DNA of 64,000 bases from Solirubrobacterales bacterium (GTDB lineage: Bacteria > Actinomycetota > Thermoleophilia > Solirubrobacterales > 70-9). Within the stretch, counting starts at the first letter, position 1. Each line of letters opens with the position of its first letter. The stretch is from NCBI GenBank assembly GCA_033856175.1, contig JAWVFK010000018.1, positions 3,104 through 67,103 on the forward strand, written 5' to 3'. Positions 4,379 to 10,476 of the stretch are shown here, in pieces. The notes under the pieces are model-generated. The model saw only the letters and a list, made by a program, of their open reading frames with translations. It was not told the DNA's origin and did no database searches. The position numbers and the translations under genes are program-made.

Positions 4379-5032
4379 CTAGTACGGCGGCAGCTCGTCG
4401 TACCAGCTGCCGAGGGCCCGGAACGAGCGCCAGAACTCCTGCTTGGCGCCCTGCTCGTCGAGCGAGACGTCGATCTCGGGCACGAAGAGGGCGTCGACGG
4501 TCGGGGTAAGGCTCTGGATCTCACCGGGCCGGGCCTCGATCGGACGCGCCAGCGGCAGCGAGAGGGCGTTGAGGACGCTCAGAGCGGCCTCCCCCATAAC
4601 GACGACCATCCGCGGCGCGATCACGGCGATCTCCTCGACCAGGCGGGCAACGCACTCGGGCGCCGCCAGCGAGGGATCGGCGACCGGGCACTTGACGCAG
4701 AGCGTGCCGTAGACGGCGAGCGGGTCGATCCCGAGCCGCTTGAGGCTCTTCATCAGAGCGTTGCCGGAGCGCCCGTAGAAGGCGACGCCCTCCTCGATCT
4801 CGGCGGCGGTCGGCGAGTGCTTGAGCATCAGGATGTCGGCCTGGGGATGGCCCGATCCGAGCACCGGCATCAGCTTGCCGCGGGGGCAATGCGGGCAGGC
4901 CTGCAGCTCACGGGTGAGCTGGTTCAGCTCTCGAATTGCCCGCTCGAGGTACTTCTCCTGGATTTCGTCGTCGGTCGTCCGCACTGCCGGAATACCTCTT
5001 GGCGACGGCGCGGCGTCTCCCTGCCGGTGCAT
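4379..5032 (-). CDS. uracil-DNA glycosylase superfamily protein (family 4/5-like, divergent)
   Basis: GSGHPQADILMLKHSP..AFYGRSGNAL resembles UDG family-4 motif A (GxGxxxAxxMxxGExP) and the F-x-G-x-x-G motif. The start ATG shares one base with the TGA stop of the upstream gene (TGATG). Confidence 0.6.
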   Translation of the reverse strand: MHRQGDAAPSPRGIPAVRTTDDEIQEKYLERAIRELNQLTRELQACPHCPRGKLMPVLGSGHPQADILMLKHSPTAAEIEEGVAFYGRSGNALMKSLKRLGIDPLAVYGTLCVKCPVADPSLAAPECVARLVEEIAVIAPRMVVVMGEAALSVLNALSLPLARPIEARPGEIQSLTPTVDALFVPEIDVSLDEQGAKQEFWRSFRALGSWYDELPPY

Positions 5033-6993
5033 CAGCTCTTGCCGTCGCCGCGGCCCGGCGGTGCGGCGCCCCGGCGAGCCCGCCGCTGGCCGCCCCTGAC
5101 CGGTCGCGCGTTCGCGACCTTGCGCTTCGGCGCCTTCGGCCGCCCCGCCGTCTGCAGGAACTTCAGCGTCTGGACGTAGACGAGGTTCTTGTGCTTCTGG
5201 ACGATGTCGGCATCGCGCATCGCCTCGAGGAACTCCTCGGGGCCGTCGAAGTCCCGCACCCTGATGCGAACGCTGCCGAGCCCCTGGGCGACGTGGCTGT
5301 CCGAGCCGGCGCCGGCGACGATCCCGTACTTGGCGGCGAAGCGGACGGCCTCCTCGTTGAAGGCGGTGACCGCGATCCGCGGGTTGAAGACCTCGAGGAT
5401 GTCGATCTCCTCGACGACGTCCAGCAGATGCTCGTAGTCCGGCACCGAGTGGAAGCGGTCGAAGGGATGGGGCATGTAGACGAGCCCGCCCTGGGCGCGG
5501 ATCGCGGCGATCGTCTCGGCCATCGTCAGGCCGCGCTCGATCTTGCGCTCGAGAAAGAGGCCGATCACCTCACCCTGCTCGGCGGTCTTGATCTCCTCGG
5601 CGACGATCACCTCGATGCCGTCCATCCCGGCGGCGATCTCGCGCGCCTCGAGCGCGCCCGAGACCTCGTTGTGGTCGGTGATCGCGATCGCGCCGAGGCC
5701 ACGGTCGCGCGCCGTCTCCAGCAGGACCTCGACGGGCGTCGCGCAGTCGGGCGAGTGGTCGGTGTGCATGTGCAGGTCGACGTCGATGGTTGGCCGCGAG
5801 GCAAGCCGCCGGCGTATGGCGGCGCTGCCTTCGGAGACGTGGCGGCGGCCGACGACGCGGCCGTAGACGCCCTCGAGCTCGTCGGTGACGTCGGACCAGC
5901 TGCGTGAGGCGGCCCGCGAGCCGGCGTCGCGGAGCTCCCGGCGCAGCGCCGGGCTCTCGGCCAGCCGCACGAGCTGGCCGGCCAGCGTGTAGGGGTCGCC
6001 GGGAGGAAAGAGCAGCCCGCGCTCGCCTTCGCCCAGCAGCTCGGCATAGCGCTCGAGGTCGGATGCGACCGGCACGGCCCCGCCGGCCAGCGCTTTGCGG
6101 ATCAGCCCCGGCGCCGAGCGCGGACCGCCCGAGGCCGCGCAGAGGACATCGGCCGATGCGATGAGATGCTCGAGCGGGCCGGCCGCCGGGCCGACGAAGT
6201 CGATCCGCTCTCTGAGGGCGCGGGCGATCCGCGGCGGGGCGACCGCAGGATCGGGCAGCCAGACCGTCGCTCGCCATTCGAGCTCCAGCGGCAGCCGCCG
6301 CAACGCGCGCAGGAACAGTCGCAGCGCGCCGCGCTCCTCCTCGGCGGCGAAGAGGATCTCGAGGCGGCCGTCGTCGTTGCGACGCCGGGGCTCGCTATCG
6401 GCGCCGGGCGGCAGCAGCTCGTAGCCGCCGGGAAAGAAGCGCTCGAGCCGCTCTGCCGTGGTCTTCGAGCAGGCGGTGCGGGCATCGAGCCGGCCGAAGA
6501 AGATCTCGACCAACGGCCGCGCGACCTGGGTCGAGAGCACGCGCTCGGCAGGGTCGTGAAAGGTGCCGACGTTGAGCGAGTGCGAGTGGCGCAACGCAGC
6601 CGCCGAGGTGCTCGGCGCGAACGGCTCGTGGACGTGGACGACATCGATCGCCAGGCTGGCGAGCAGCGTCTCGAGGCTGCGGCCGACATCGATCGAGACC
6701 GAGGCGCCGCGCGAGCTCGAGCCGCTCGGCAGCGACAGCCCGGGGCCGACGCAGACCAGCTGCGGCTTGCCGTCCGCCGGCAGGATCGCGGCTGGGTCGG
6801 CGCCAGCGGCTCGAATCAGCCGGCGCCCTTCGCGGATCTCGGCGCGCGAGTCCGAGGGCGCGACGATGAGGACGCGGTGGCCGCGGGCGGCGAGCTCCGC
6901 CGAGGTGCGCTCGACGAACTCGTTGACCTCGTGCCGGTCCCCCCACTGCTGCGGGGTGACCTGCGCGATCGTCAGGCGGCCGTCGTCAGACAC
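5032..6993 (-). CDS. PimA-like GT4 glycosyltransferase fused to C-terminal PHP phosphoesterase domain
   Basis: The N-terminal ~400 aa parallels mycobacterial PimA (VHVHEPFAPSTS, GTFHDP, EERGALRLF, GGAVPVASDL). The C-terminal IDVDLHMHTDHSPDC..AITDHN..MPHPFD..GSDSH is PHP metal-binding histidine/aspartate signature. The ORF-track start (7758) would overlap ino1, so I take GTG 6993 (VSDDGRLTIAQVTP). Confidence 0.75.
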   Translation of the reverse strand: MSDDGRLTIAQVTPQQWGDRHEVNEFVERTSAELAARGHRVLIVAPSDSRAEIREGRRLIRAAGADPAAILPADGKPQLVCVGPGLSLPSGSSSRGASVSIDVGRSLETLLASLAIDVVHVHEPFAPSTSAAALRHSHSLNVGTFHDPAERVLSTQVARPLVEIFFGRLDARTACSKTTAERLERFFPGGYELLPPGADSEPRRRNDDGRLEILFAAEEERGALRLFLRALRRLPLELEWRATVWLPDPAVAPPRIARALRERIDFVGPAAGPLEHLIASADVLCAASGGPRSAPGLIRKALAGGAVPVASDLERYAELLGEGERGLLFPPGDPYTLAGQLVRLAESPALRRELRDAGSRAASRSWSDVTDELEGVYGRVVGRRHVSEGSAAIRRRLASRPTIDVDLHMHTDHSPDCATPVEVLLETARDRGLGAIAITDHNEVSGALEAREIAAGMDGIEVIVAEEIKTAEQGEVIGLFLERKIERGLTMAETIAAIRAQGGLVYMPHPFDRFHSVPDYEHLLDVVEEIDILEVFNPRIAVTAFNEEAVRFAAKYGIVAGAGSDSHVAQGLGSVRIRVRDFDGPEEFLEAMRDADIVQKHKNLVYVQTLKFLQTAGRPKAPKRKVANARPVRGGQRRARRGAAPPGRGDGKS

Positions 6994-7055
6994 TGGCCGA
7001 GAATAGAGAGGGGCGCGCGGAGGGCCGACCGCCGCGCCGCGCCGGGCTACCCGGG

Positions 7056-8231
7056 CTACTGCTCGGCGCTGACCGGCGTCTCGCTGGCGGCCGGCTGCTG
7101 GGGCGCCGTGCCGCGGGCGTTCTTGGCGATGAACTCCTCGGTGTCGTCGCGCGCCTGCGAGTCGGGCCGCTGGTTGTGCGGCGACTTCATCAGGTAGCTC
7201 GAGGGGCCGTCGAGCTGGCCGGCGACGCCGTTGTTGAGCGCCAGCTTGACGATCCGGACCGCGTCGATGACGATGCCGGCCGAGTTCGGCGAGTCCCAGA
7301 CCTCGAGCTTGAGCTCGAGGTTCAGCGGCACGTCGCCGAAGGCCCGGCCCTCGACGCGGATGTGGGCCCACTTGCGGTCGGTCAGCCACGGCACGTAGTC
7401 GGAGGGGCCGATGTAGACGTCGTCGGCCGGCAGCTCGTGGTCCATGATCGAGGTGACGGCGTTGGTCTTCGAGATCTTCTTCGACTCGAGCCGCTCGCGC
7501 TCGAGCATGTTGAAGAAGTCCATGTTGCCGCCGACGTTGAGCTGGCTGGTGCGCTCCATGCGCACGCCGCGGTCGGCGAACAGCCGCGCCAGCTGGCGAT
7601 GGACGATCGTCGCGCCGACCTGGGACTTGATGTCGTCGCCGATGATCGGCAGGCCGGCCTCGCGAAAGCGGTTGTCCCAGTAGTCCTCGCGGGCGATGAA
7701 GACGGGCAGGCAGTTGACGAAGCCGACACCGGCGGCGAGGGCCTGTTCGACGTACCACTTGGTCGCGTCCTCGGAGCCGACCGGCAGGTAGCAGACGAGG
7801 ACATCGGTCTTCGTCTCCTTGAGGATGCCGACGATGTCGGCGGTCTCGCCCGGCGCCTTGGTGATCTTCTGCTTGAGGTACTTGCCGAGGCCGTCGTGGG
7901 TCATGCCGCGCTCGACCCTGACGCCCAGCGACGGCACCTCGGAGAAGGTGATCGTGTTGTTCTGGCCGGAGAAGATCGCCTCGGAGAGGTCCTTGCCGAC
8001 CTTGTCGACGTCGATGTCGAAGGCCGCGGTGAACTCGATGTCGCGGACGTGGTAGCCACCGAGATCGACGTGCATGAGACCCGGGACCTGCTCGTTCGGG
8101 TCGGCGTCGCGGTAGTACTGGACGCCCTGCACGAAGGAGCTCGCACAGTTGCCGACGCCGACGATGGCGACGCGGACCTTGCCGTCGTCAGCGCGCATGC
8201 CGTTGCTTGATACGCCGTTTGTCTTGCTCAT
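7056..8231 (-). CDS. ino1: myo-inositol-1-phosphate synthase
   Basis: 391 aa. [22 protein letters not shown] (NAD fold), ..LPVGSE.. and [11 protein letters not shown].. are typical bacterial/archaeal Ino1. Confidence 0.9.
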
Positions 8232-8291
8232 GCGGAAACAGTTCCTCCTGGTTCAGTTCAGGTTCGTAAGCACACCCGCCCCCAAGCGGGG

Positions 8292-8948
8292 TTACACGGA
8301 GCGCTCCGCCTCGATCAGCTGGCCGCGGACGTGCCAGACGCGCTGGAACACGGTAACCGCTGTCAGAGCGGCCATCACGTAGATCGCCGGCGCAAGCAGC
8401 TCGAAGCTGCCGAGAGAGGCTCCGCGGGCGAAGACCAGGCCGATCGAGAGCACGACGACCCGGACCGGCCGCGTGGCGAGGCCGACCTTGCACTCGACGC
8501 CGAGCGCCTCGGCGCGGGCGCGGGTGTAGGAGACCATCAGCGAGCCGAGCGTCGCACCGACGCACATCGCCGCGGCGAACTCGTCGCCGCGGGCGGCGAA
8601 GTAGGCGGCAACCGCGGTGAGGACGATGCCCTCCTCGACGCGGTCGAGCGTCGAGTCGAGAAAGGCGCCGAAGAGCGAGCCCTTGCCCGACATCCGCGAG
8701 TAGCGGCCGTCGAGGGTGTCCATCACCGAGCCGACGATGAATGCCACCCCGGCGAGGAAGAACAGGCGCTCGACGACGAGGACGGCGGCGGCGGCGTTGA
8801 GGACGAAGCCGGTCAGCGAGATCGCGTTGGGGGTCAGTCGCGACTCGATCAGCCGCTCGCGGGCGAGCGAGCGCAGATCCTGGCCGTTGCGGCGCGGCCG
8901 CTCGGCGTCGCGACTGCGTGGAGCCTGTGAGGGAGCTGAGGTTGCCAT
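8292..8948 (-). CDS. pgsA: CDP-alcohol phosphatidyltransferase (phosphatidylinositol-phosphate synthase-like)
   Basis: DTLDGRYSRMSGKGSLFGAFLDSTLDRVEE matches D-x2-DG-x2-AR-x8-G-x3-D-x3-D. Multiple TM helices. Directly upstream of ino1 in the same orientation. Confidence 0.8.
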   Translation of the reverse strand: MATSAPSQAPRSRDAERPRRNGQDLRSLARERLIESRLTPNAISLTGFVLNAAAAVLVVERLFFLAGVAFIVGSVMDTLDGRYSRMSGKGSLFGAFLDSTLDRVEEGIVLTAVAAYFAARGDEFAAAMCVGATLGSLMVSYTRARAEALGVECKVGLATRPVRVVVLSIGLVFARGASLGSFELLAPAIYVMAALTAVTVFQRVWHVRGQLIEAERSV

Positions 8949-8963
8949 CGGCGGGGGCCAGCC

Positions 8964-9743
8964 TCAGGCGGCGCTGGCGCGGACCTCGGGCTGCCGCCAA
9001 GCCCACGCCGCCGGCCTTACCCGGGCGAGCAGTCGATGGGCGGCGAGGGCTGCCACGACGGCGACGACGGCGCCGGCGGCGGCGTCGAACCAGAAGTGGT
9101 TTGCCGTGCCGACGATGACGAGGAATACGAGGGCCGGATACAGGGCCCAGAAGGCCTTGCTGAGGCGATGGCGTGAGATCCGGAAGCCGGGGACGCCGAT
9201 CATCAGCGAGAAGGCGATGTGCATGCTGGGCACGGCGGCATAGGGATTGACGAGTACCTTGAGCAGGTCGGAGTCCTGGTTGACGTTGGAGATGTCGTGG
9301 ATCGTGTCGACGAAGCCGAAGCCGGTCGTCATCCGCGGCGGGGCGACGGGGAAGAGCGTGTAGCCGACGAGGGCCAGGCCCATCGCCACCATGAACATGT
9401 TGCGGACGAAGTAGAAGGCGTCGTTGCGGAAGAGATAGAGCCAGAGCAGGAACGAGGTCGTGACGACGAAGTGCGTGTTCAGGTACATCCAGTTGAGCGT
9501 GCTGACGAGCCAGTGCTCGGGCAGCAGCAGCTTCTGCAGGCCGGGCTCGAAGAAGGTCCCCGTCGCCCGCTCGAGGTCGATGACCTTGGCGGTGTTGGCG
9601 AAGGCGGCCGAGGCCTTGCCCTCGGTGATCCCGCGCACGAACTCGTAGCCGAGGTCGGCCATCACGAACAGGCTCAGCTGACGGGCGGCGTCGCCCCATC
9701 CCTTGGGCAGACGCGCGCCGATTCTCGAGACTAGACGCCGCAC
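8964..9743 (-). CDS. PAP2 superfamily membrane protein, sphingomyelin/IPC-synthase-like
   Basis: Polytopic membrane protein with AAVPSMHIAFS (S-x-H) and GTANHFWFDAAAG (H-x3-D), the C3/C4 motifs of phospho-headgroup transferases of the PAP2_C type. First gene of the inositol-lipid operon. Confidence 0.6.
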   Translation of the reverse strand: MRRLVSRIGARLPKGWGDAARQLSLFVMADLGYEFVRGITEGKASAAFANTAKVIDLERATGTFFEPGLQKLLLPEHWLVSTLNWMYLNTHFVVTTSFLLWLYLFRNDAFYFVRNMFMVAMGLALVGYTLFPVAPPRMTTGFGFVDTIHDISNVNQDSDLLKVLVNPYAAVPSMHIAFSLMIGVPGFRISRHRLSKAFWALYPALVFLVIVGTANHFWFDAAAGAVVAVVAALAAHRLLARVRPAAWAWRQPEVRASAA

Positions 9744-9765
9744 GACCCCTGATTGTATTCGGCTT

Positions 9766-10476
9766 GTGAACTCCTGGCGAAGGCCACCACGACGGCGGGT
9801 CCGCGCGATCAGGGACCGCCTGCGCGAACTCTACGGACGCCCGCCCCAGAACATCCACGGCGACCCGATCCACGAGCTCGTGCTGACGGTGCTCTCGCAG
9901 AACACCAGCGACCGCAATCGCGACGTCGCCTATGCGCGCCTGCGCGAGAGGTTCCCCGGCGGCCAGAGCCCGGTATCCGGGGTCGACTGGGAGGCGGTTC
10001 GCGACGCGCCCTTGCGCGAGGTCGCCGACGCCATCCGCCCCGGCGGGCTCGCCGACACCAAGGCGCCGCGGATCCAGCAGATCCTGCGAACGCTGAGCGC
10101 CGCCGAGCCCGGGCTCAACCTCGACTGGCTGCGGCGGGCGCCTCGCGAGACGGCGATCGAGTATCTCGTCTCGCTGCCGGGGGTCGGCCGCAAGACCGCC
10201 GCCTGCGTGCTGCTCTTCGCCTTCGGCCGGCCCGAGGTGCCGGTCGACGTCCACGTCCAGAGGGTCGGCGGCCGTCTTGGGCTGCTGCCAGCGGGCGGCG
10301 CACTCGACGCCGCCCACGACGAGATCCTCGCGATCGTCGATCCCGAAGATGCCTACGAGCTGCACATGAACCTGATCCGCCATGGCCGCGAGATCTGCCG
10401 GCCGCGGCCGCGCTGCGAGCTCTGCGGCCTGCGGCGAATGTGCCCGTACTGGCGAGAGCTCAGGGCGAAGAACTAG
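9766..10476 (+). CDS. nth: endonuclease III-like HhH-GPD base-excision glycosylase
   Basis: HELVLTVLSQNTSD, HhH LPGVGRKTAACVLLFAFG, VDVHVQRV, and C-terminal Cys cluster CRPRPRCELCGLRRMC. The ORF-track start 9703 would overlap the divergent gene's 5' end by 41 nt, so the in-frame GTG 9766 is preferred. The start is uncertain. Confidence 0.8.
   Translation: MNSWRRPPRRRVRAIRDRLRELYGRPPQNIHGDPIHELVLTVLSQNTSDRNRDVAYARLRERFPGGQSPVSGVDWEAVRDAPLREVADAIRPGGLADTKAPRIQQILRTLSAAEPGLNLDWLRRAPRETAIEYLVSLPGVGRKTAACVLLFAFGRPEVPVDVHVQRVGGRLGLLPAGGALDAAHDEILAIVDPEDAYELHMNLIRHGREICRPRPRCELCGLRRMCPYWRELRAKN

Follow-up and report, generated by a model that had tools for sequence, protein, structure and literature searches.

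We propose that a gene of a Solirubrobacterales genome, in which a glycosyltransferase family 4 (GT4) domain is joined to a PHP phosphoesterase domain, encodes a phosphatidylinositol phosphate (PIP) phosphatase: a candidate peripheral-membrane enzyme that would act through its PHP domain, with the GT4 remnant serving as a membrane-targeting or head-group-binding module. In our estimate the probability of this reading is roughly one half. The gene lies in a 64,000-nucleotide stretch of DNA from Solirubrobacterales bacterium (70-9; Thermoleophilia), GCA_033856175.1, JAWVFK010000018.1:3,104-67,103, forward strand, referred to below as the window; coordinates are window positions unless another sequence is named. 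The protein belongs to a known kind of enzyme, the PHP phosphoesterases; what is new is its architecture and the role proposed for it. An earlier reading of the stretch from its letters (the sequence-only reading) had described a 653-amino-acid open reading frame made of a GT4 domain, a complete PHP domain and a basic tail, and this anatomy is borne out by the Pfam domains, the ligand motifs and the 13 lysines or arginines among the last 37 residues. The fusion gene and its parts are:

5032..6993, minus strand: GT4-PHP fusion open reading frame, 653 codons, GTG start and TGA stop (open reading frame and Pfam)
5824..6993, minus strand: GT4 (GT-B) domain, residues 1-390, PimA paralogue with donor-binding residues lost (Pfam GT4 families)
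5194..5784, minus strand: PHP plus PHP_C phosphoesterase domain, residues 404-600 (Pfam PHP and PHP_C)
5146..5193, minus strand: conserved C-terminal helix, residues 601-616, KNLVYVQTLKFLQT (column entropy and predicted helix)
5035..5145, minus strand: polybasic disordered tail, residues 617-653 (13 K/R against 1 D/E in 37 residues)

Pfam assigns Glyco_transf_4 to residues 25-200 (63.8 bits), Glyco_trans_1_4 to residues 220-346, PHP (PF02811) to residues 406-484 (44.9 bits) and PHP_C (PF13263) to residues 545-594 (43.8 bits), the two PHP matches both being above their cut-offs. The helix region has the lowest column entropy of the whole protein (0.26 bits), with a helix predicted at residues 604-615 at low confidence; the tail has a pLDDT below 50, and its sequence changes among relatives, with the basic character retained. 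The AlphaFold2 (AF2) model of the full-length fusion has a pTM of 0.64. The join between the two halves is a genuine protein and a chance joining of reading frames is ruled out, since full-length in-frame fusions recur across the order and the class.

More than 8000 relatives came out of a word-index search, and the best 120 are all full-length fusions with 65-77% identity; the named ones among these 120 are Solirubrobacterales or Actinomycetota metagenome-assembled genomes. We also sampled 401 genomes evenly across the phylum; in this sample families f1-f3 belong to the order of the window, and f4-f8 are further families of its class. A full-length in-frame fusion occurs in 16 of the 16 sampled genomes of the order and in every sampled class family f4-f8, with one sampled genome lacking it; outside Thermoleophilia this sample contains no fusion, only separate GT4 genes and stand-alone PHP genes. 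A pattern scan of the GTDB species-representative genomes confirmed at least 528 fusion loci. The top 80 titles listed name Solirubrobacterales, Thermoleophilaceae, Solirubrobacteraceae, Paraconexibacteraceae or Thermoleophilia; the exceptions are a small number of generic labels and two short contigs placed in other bins. Thus, the search for the fusion in other genomes, which the sequence-only reading had put forward as a check, gives a class-wide family (at least 528 species genomes) and not a feature restricted to this genome. Mycobacterium and other classical actinomycetes lack the family, so it does not directly solve the medically relevant case.

The fusion gene is the fourth of five closely packed genes that run in one direction on the minus strand (9743..4379):

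8964..9743, minus strand: PAP2_3 membrane protein (AUR1/IPC-synthase-like PAP2), first gene of the array (Pfam PAP2_3, 140 bits)
8292..8948, minus strand: CDP-alcohol phosphatidyltransferase of the PIP or archaetidylinositol-phosphate synthase type (Pfam CDP-OH_P_transf)
7056..8231, minus strand: ino1, myo-inositol-3-phosphate synthase (Pfam Inos-1-P_synth, 126 bits; TIGR03450, 555 bits)
5032..6993, minus strand: the GT4-PHP fusion
4379..5032, minus strand: gene of the uracil-DNA glycosylase (UDG) superfamily, family-4-like (Pfam UDG, 49 bits; UDG_fam4, 50 bits)

Pfam and NCBIfam agree with the same-strand array that had been read from the sequence. For the CDP-alcohol transferase, taken here as the PIP synthase (PIPS), the top NCBIfam models are NF040950 (archaetidylinositol-phosphate synthase, 132 bits) and NF045883 (PIPSynth, 124 bits), neither of which reaches its curated cut-off. 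PIPS, ino1, the fusion and the UDG-like gene lie on one strand in all 58 order-level loci with sufficient flank, with PAP2_3 upstream in 52 of them, and the PIPS-ino1-fusion-UDG order holds also in the other families of the class.

The PHP half appears to be the conserved, presumably catalytic part of the protein. Among the best 120 relatives it has 83% mean identity, with 87 of its 197 columns invariant and a column entropy of 0.37 bits, and H408, H410, D416, D440-H441, E466-E467, H509, H515, D565 and H567 are invariant class-wide except in family f4; this invariance points to retained catalysis. The motifs DLHMHTxxSxD, DHN, EE(I/V)K, GE(V/I)IGLFL, PHPFD, D..E..N and GSD(S/A)H are kept in all fusions outside f4, and the ligand-bearing ones, from which the metal site was assigned, are also conserved in stand-alone homologues. 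In the AF2 model the core of the domain has a pLDDT of 80-97 and a PHP fold; its matches include PsfC, TM0559 (2anu), RNase AM (7ug9) and Cv1693, the best PDB entries being 7rty, 2anu and 7ug9 at E values of 3e-10 to 6e-9, and the fold search with this model returned generic PHP enzymes only, with no lipid phosphatase. The NCBIfam models match over the first 70 residues only, with 37.4 bits for RNase AM (NF047791; cut-off 375) and 37.3 bits for NF041577 (cut-off 400). Since these equivalog scores are about a tenth of the cut-offs, we place the PHP domain outside the RNase AM and pAp phosphatase families.

With PHP proteins of the TrpH/YciV type (RNase AM, 7UG9/9ETK; Cv1693, 2YB1, a 3′,5′-bisphosphonucleotide phosphatase; BAD_1165, 3E0F; TM0559, 2ANU) the fusion shares the PHP fold with PHP_C and the ligand motifs HxH, DH, E, H and DxH. 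The fusion differs from them in its GT-B partner, in its polybasic tail and in its context of lipid synthesis rather than nucleotide metabolism; in addition, the histidine that follows the glutamate ligand seems to be replaced in its GE(V/I)IGLFL motif, as read off the alignments. By analogy, PIP-type and TrpH/YciV-type substrates both present a ring phosphomonoester beside a second phosphate ester.

The GT4 half has a complete GT-B fold, with PimA (4n9w and 2gej, TM 0.71-0.73) as the top Foldseek matches, and residues 51-383 of the fusion align to residues 23-370 of PimA. The collinearity with PimA motifs noted earlier therefore stands for the fold and the overall alignment, but not for the donor-binding and catalytic positions, which are replaced in the window protein (G16E, R196E, K202G, E274R and E282K); a phmmer alignment agrees at K202, E274 and E282, and pairs R196 with an alanine. 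In PimA the pyrophosphate of GDP is held by Gly16, Arg196 and Lys202, the ribose by Glu282 and the mannose by Glu274, and in the PimA homologue ManT alanine at the equivalents of Lys202, Glu274 or Glu282 abolishes or strongly cuts activity (PMC9883506). Among the 120 relatives the residue at K202 is glycine in all 120 and that at G16 is glutamate in 116, and neither position of the EX7E motif is ever glutamate, both varying freely. Similar to PimA of M. smegmatis (2GEJ/4N9W), the fused domain has the GT-B/GT4 fold and keeps H118 and the HEPxAPS stretch, and its gene has a PIP synthase gene as a neighbor, just as mycobacterial pimA lies in the pgsA1 operon; unlike PimA, the fusion carries a C-terminal PHP domain and has lost G16, R196, K202, E274 and E282.

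The genome has a better match to PimA on another contig. The fused GT4 scores 64 bits to M. smegmatis PimA (4n9w), versus 200 bits over the full length for a gene on contig C10 (C10:16604-18916, minus strand), which encodes a PimA orthologue with all donor residues intact and an additional C-terminal LPG_synthase_TM (flippase-like) domain. The C10 gene is likely the true PimA of this genome. A maximum-likelihood tree gathers the PimA orthologues, among them M. smegmatis PimA and the C10 gene, into a single clan with 99/96 support, and every fused GT4 falls outside it. The motif table, the tree and the C10 orthologue rule out the fused GT4 as the PimA of this organism, and with it the earlier assignment of this half as the PimA mannosyltransferase; it is better described as a PimA paralogue on a separate lineage. 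By its sequence, it is very unlikely to mannosylate anything in the window organism, and is probably a pseudo-glycosyltransferase or a targeting module. The GT4 part has 60% mean identity among the 120 relatives, and its 48 invariant columns lie more in the N-half, on the acceptor side, than in the rest; since the complete GT-B fold and these columns are retained, this half is under selection, though not for the use of nucleotide sugars. Around the C10 gene, we also observed a GT87 (PimE-like) gene 4 kb away, and most other genomes of the order have a matching PimA-LPG_synthase_TM open frame of about 770-870 amino acids.

Bacterial phosphatidylinositol (PI) is made via PIP, which has the stereochemistry of PI(3)P. 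Published lipid data give PI as the main polar lipid of Conexibacter woesei, a cultured member of Solirubrobacterales, and report PI and phosphatidylinositol mannosides (PIM) in Solirubrobacter; because cultured Solirubrobacterales make PI, a PIP-to-PI step must exist in them. The sequence-only reading had stated that the actinobacterial PIP phosphatase is not firmly assigned, and a recent preprint agrees, calling it ‘as-yet unidentified’ and ‘long-sought’, with EphE as a candidate only (bioRxiv 10.64898/2026.07.15.738315, July 2026). The one proven bacterial PIP phosphatase is BT_1525 of Bacteroides thetaiotaomicron, a member of the PgpA family (Heaver et al. 2022, PMC9246714), encoded in a cluster of myo-inositol phosphate synthase (MIPS), PIPS, the PgpA-type PIP phosphatase and an AUR1-like PAP2 protein (plus an LPG-synthase-like protein; PMC9246714). 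PI(3)P was the standard in that study. We found no match to PgpA (PF04608) in the fusion, in the window genome or in 20 relatives, with a positive control that worked. By subtraction against the Bacteroides cluster, the PHP domain fills the PgpA slot, and this makes it the best candidate for the PIP phosphatase. The 58/58 synteny, the class-wide linkage and the absence of PgpA from the genome and 20 relatives make the earlier suggestion of a PHP-type PIP phosphatase credible, at about even odds. The fusion and BT_1525 occupy equivalent slots beside MIPS, PIPS and an AUR1-like PAP2 protein and share the proposed reaction from PIP to PI, but the PgpA fold of BT_1525 is unrelated to PHP, so that the fusion would be at most a functional equivalent. 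EphE (Rv3670) is predicted in complex with PimA, which is also predicted in complex with the scaffold Rv2609c (bioRxiv 10.64898/2026.07.15.738315); the preprint also describes a viable ephE deletion mutant of M. smegmatis. EphE and the fusion's PHP are two hydrolases with a physical tie, predicted for EphE, to a PimA-type protein, and each is a candidate for the PIP-to-PI step; EphE is an alpha/beta hydrolase in a non-covalent association with PimA, and the fusion is a PHP protein covalently joined to its GT4 partner. Our literature searches turned up nothing relevant on a GT4-PHP fusion, a PHP-type PIP phosphatase or an archaetidylinositol-phosphate phosphatase.

In the proposed pathway, Ino1 would supply inositol-3-phosphate, the neighboring CDP-alcohol transferase would combine it with CDP-diacylglycerol to give PIP, and the PHP domain of the fusion would strip the ring phosphate, converting PIP to PI, which would then be used by the true PimA encoded elsewhere in the genome. 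The GT4 half would transfer no sugar but would retain its GT-B scaffold, chiefly the N-half on the acceptor side. With the help of the C-terminal helix and the polybasic tail, this half may hold the phosphatase at the anionic cytoplasmic face of the membrane or present the head group of the inositol lipid. A soluble PHP domain with a polybasic tail and a conserved helix fits a peripheral protein on that face. In this scheme we infer that PIP is the substrate, that the protein binds the membrane and that its GT4 half serves in targeting. If the proposal is true, the fusion would add a third, non-homologous way of turning PIP into PI to the PgpA of Bacteroides and the EphE candidate of mycobacteria; the PHP superfamily would gain a lipid head-group phosphatase, and a glycosyltransferase fold would have been recycled as a substrate-targeting module. 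The family offers a defined, soluble and easily expressed candidate for a large soil class, with clear ligand mutants as controls. In actinobacteria, inositol lipids anchor PIM, lipomannan and lipoarabinomannan. The fusion could serve as a complementation tool in Mycobacterium and other classical actinomycetes.

Natural variants (GT active-like, dead, halved or reduced to a stub; PHP dead or deleted) together dissect both halves of the fusion. K202, E274 and E282 are still present in the fused GT4 of families f5 and f8, as is R196 in f5; in families f1-f3, those of the order of the window, the GT4 donor residues are lost. A protein of 455 amino acids (P0153, locus L172) has only the N-half of the GT4 domain, followed by a PHP domain with 54% identity, and one of 378 amino acids (P0209) has a 160-residue stub without any glycosyltransferase Pfam match, followed by an intact PHP domain; the gene of the latter (L173, 7001-8137; GCA_016462095.1, JAEMTW010000003.1) lies in a PAP2_3-PIPS-ino1-PHP-UDG array. 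Outside f4 the PHP domain holds its slot in the PIPS-ino1 operon with its ligands intact, while its N-terminal partner varies. The GT4 and PHP halves carry separable functions, since the GT side decays in some lineages and the PHP side in f4. The sequence-only reading had made a Rosetta-stone argument, by which the fusion couples the dephosphorylation to the first mannosylation; it fails in this organism, where the GT4 is degenerate, and may hold only in f5 and f8, where the fused GT4 keeps donor residues.

Several observations weigh against a PIP phosphatase. In the sister family f4 (L049-L051 and L071) the HxH, DH and DxH ligands of the PHP domain are gone, and one complete f4 genome (L166, G131:C1:2722001-2732000) has the domain deleted, which leaves PIPS-GT4-UDG. 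Despite the dead or deleted PHP, PIPS in this family stays together with the GT4-like part, the UDG-like gene and, usually, ino1. The fusion must therefore also have a role that does not depend on PHP, and in f4 the dephosphorylation of PIP must fall to another enzyme. Among characterised proteins, the PHP domain's nearest relatives have nucleotides or RNA ends as substrates, not lipids. We also looked for stand-alone PHP genes beside pgsA or pimA in other Actinobacteria, the second check that had been suggested, and the outcome was negative: none of the close stand-alone PHP homologues adjoins PIPS, ino1, pgsA or pimA in other actinobacterial classes. A close stand-alone PHP gene and a PIPS-like gene occur together in 34 of 36 genomes, barely more than the base rate of 72%, and the PIPS-like genes may include PgsA paralogues, so that this co-occurrence is uninformative. 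Finally, other possible phosphatases are at hand, since PAP2_3 is a member of the lipid-phosphatase superfamily and lies in the operon at 52 of the 58 loci, and the genome has two genes of the IMPase family.

These stand-alone PHP homologues of other actinobacterial classes share 36-44% identity with the PHP domain, are about 220-250 amino acids long and have a basic, possibly amphipathic C-terminal stretch. Their neighbors include LCP (L062, L063 and L065), BacA/UppP (L053) and purS-purQ (L056, L059 and L067), and several of the recurrent ones relate to the cell envelope; in L061, PAP2_3 and LPG_synthase_TM lie 1.5 kb from the stand-alone PHP gene. The stand-alone homologues that come after an LCP gene in families f30 and f23 led us to consider a PHP tyrosine phosphatase of the CpsB/Wzb type, which we rejected: the fusion has no CpsB-type Pfam match, and no kinase context was seen.

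The PHP domain could instead act on another phosphoester (inositol-3-phosphate; pAp, CMP or a CDP-alcohol; or a lipid-linked pyrophosphate), the PIP phosphatase of the clade being something else, such as PAP2_3, a protein of the IMPase family or an EphE-like hydrolase. The TrpH/RNase AM/pAp-phosphatase type of the nearest sequence and fold relatives and the BacA/UppP, LCP or purS-purQ neighbors of the stand-alone homologues would suit this explanation, as would the f4 operon that persists with a dead PHP domain and the PAP2_3 and IMPase-family genes mentioned above. We nevertheless regard it as rather unlikely: the RNase AM and pAp phosphatase models reach only about 37 bits against cut-offs of 375-400, an inositol-3-phosphate phosphatase on one transcript with ino1 and PIPS would use up what PIPS needs as its substrate, and the PHP domain is intact in the PIPS-ino1 operon of every sampled family but f4. 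As to PAP2_3, which could be a phosphatase or a phosphoinositol transferase, it is of the AUR1/IPC-synthase type, with a weak match to the model of the Bacteroides PI-dihydroceramide synthase (NF052609), and is missing from 6 of the 58 loci; a rough topology from the positive-inside rule places its PSMH and HFWFD motifs on the face opposite the K/R-rich loops, apparently outward. In one other genome (G388, L170), we observed a PAP2_3 gene directly upstream of a PimA-like gene.

A different explanation takes both halves as catalytic, with the GT4 domain glycosylating PIP, PI or inositol-3-phosphate from an unusual donor and the PHP domain dephosphorylating the product. Trehalose-6-phosphate, sucrose-phosphate and mannosyl-3-phosphoglycerate synthase/phosphatase fusions, with the glycosyltransferase followed by the phosphatase, would be the model, or else MshA followed by the unidentified MshA2 phosphatase. 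The fusion has the same domain order as those fusions, ino1 is directly upstream of it, the fused GT4 of f5 and f8 retains K202, E274 and E282, and the class-wide PimA search found four f8 genomes whose one PimA-like match is an open frame of fusion length (634-670 amino acids). Against this stand the loss of the pyrophosphate-, ribose- and sugar-binding residues in the window protein and 120 relatives, the EX7E positions that vary freely, and variants entirely without the donor half, so that a two-step glycosyl-phosphoinositol synthase/phosphatase is possible in f5 and f8 and very unlikely for the window protein; as a general explanation of the fusion it is highly improbable. The mycothiol version (MshA/MshA2) was rejected: the best match to the MshC model has 278 bits against a cut-off of 485, hence no mycothiol pathway, MshA structures score far below PimA, to which the GT4 part is nearer, and the donor site is lost. 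Very doubtful, too, is a fusion that works mainly as a non-catalytic scaffold or regulator of an inositol-lipid complex (PIPS, the UDG-like protein and possibly PimA), with PHP chemistry secondary or regulatory. The gene and its UDG-like neighbor are always kept, though the GT4 is degenerate here and the PHP in f4, and the predicted complex of mycobacterial PimA with the Rv2609c scaffold and EphE (bioRxiv 10.64898/2026.07.15.738315) would offer a precedent; but the PHP metal ligands are strictly invariant outside f4, and no part of the protein is better conserved than PHP, a sign that catalysis has been retained.

The UDG-like gene is directly downstream of the fusion in 58 of 58 order-level and 18 of 21 class-level loci, and is retained too where the partner PHP is dead or deleted or the GT4 is a stub. 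Base 5032 is common to the stop codon of the fusion and the first ATG of the UDG-like gene (CTGATG), as the sequence-only reading had noted; the long UDG-like open frame is supported by the UDG alignment, which begins at query residue 1 in seven of nine order-level loci. The protein does not reach the family-4 model (TIGR00758; 50 bits versus a cut-off of 125). It has LKHSP at motif A, and where motif B would be expected, close to the C-terminus, there is a P-x-I-D stretch; we take the canonical motifs of family-4 UDGs to be GE.PG (A) and HP. (B). The UDG-like protein is probably not a DNA glycosylase. The fuller picture, in which a class-wide PHP-type PIP phosphatase is delivered by a dead, domesticated PimA domain and works with a repurposed UDG-fold protein that is no glycosylase, is tentative, with chances somewhat short of even. 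The putative Fe-S cysteines of the UDG-like protein are lost in L049, L071 and L173.

We also scanned the region for promoters and terminators, and nothing usable was found besides one weak promoter-like site:

9752..9780, minus strand: sigma-70-like promoter match 5′ of the PAP2_3 start (TCGCCA-17-TACAAT, 9 of 12 matches)

This is the sole such match in the region, compared to a mean of 0.2 in shuffled sequence, and it is weak evidence for an operon start at this place. A base-excision gene of the HhH-GPD (endonuclease III-like) type is divergent from the operon (9703-10476, plus strand); its longest open frame overlaps the PAP2_3 start by about 40 nucleotides, so its real start is probably further downstream.

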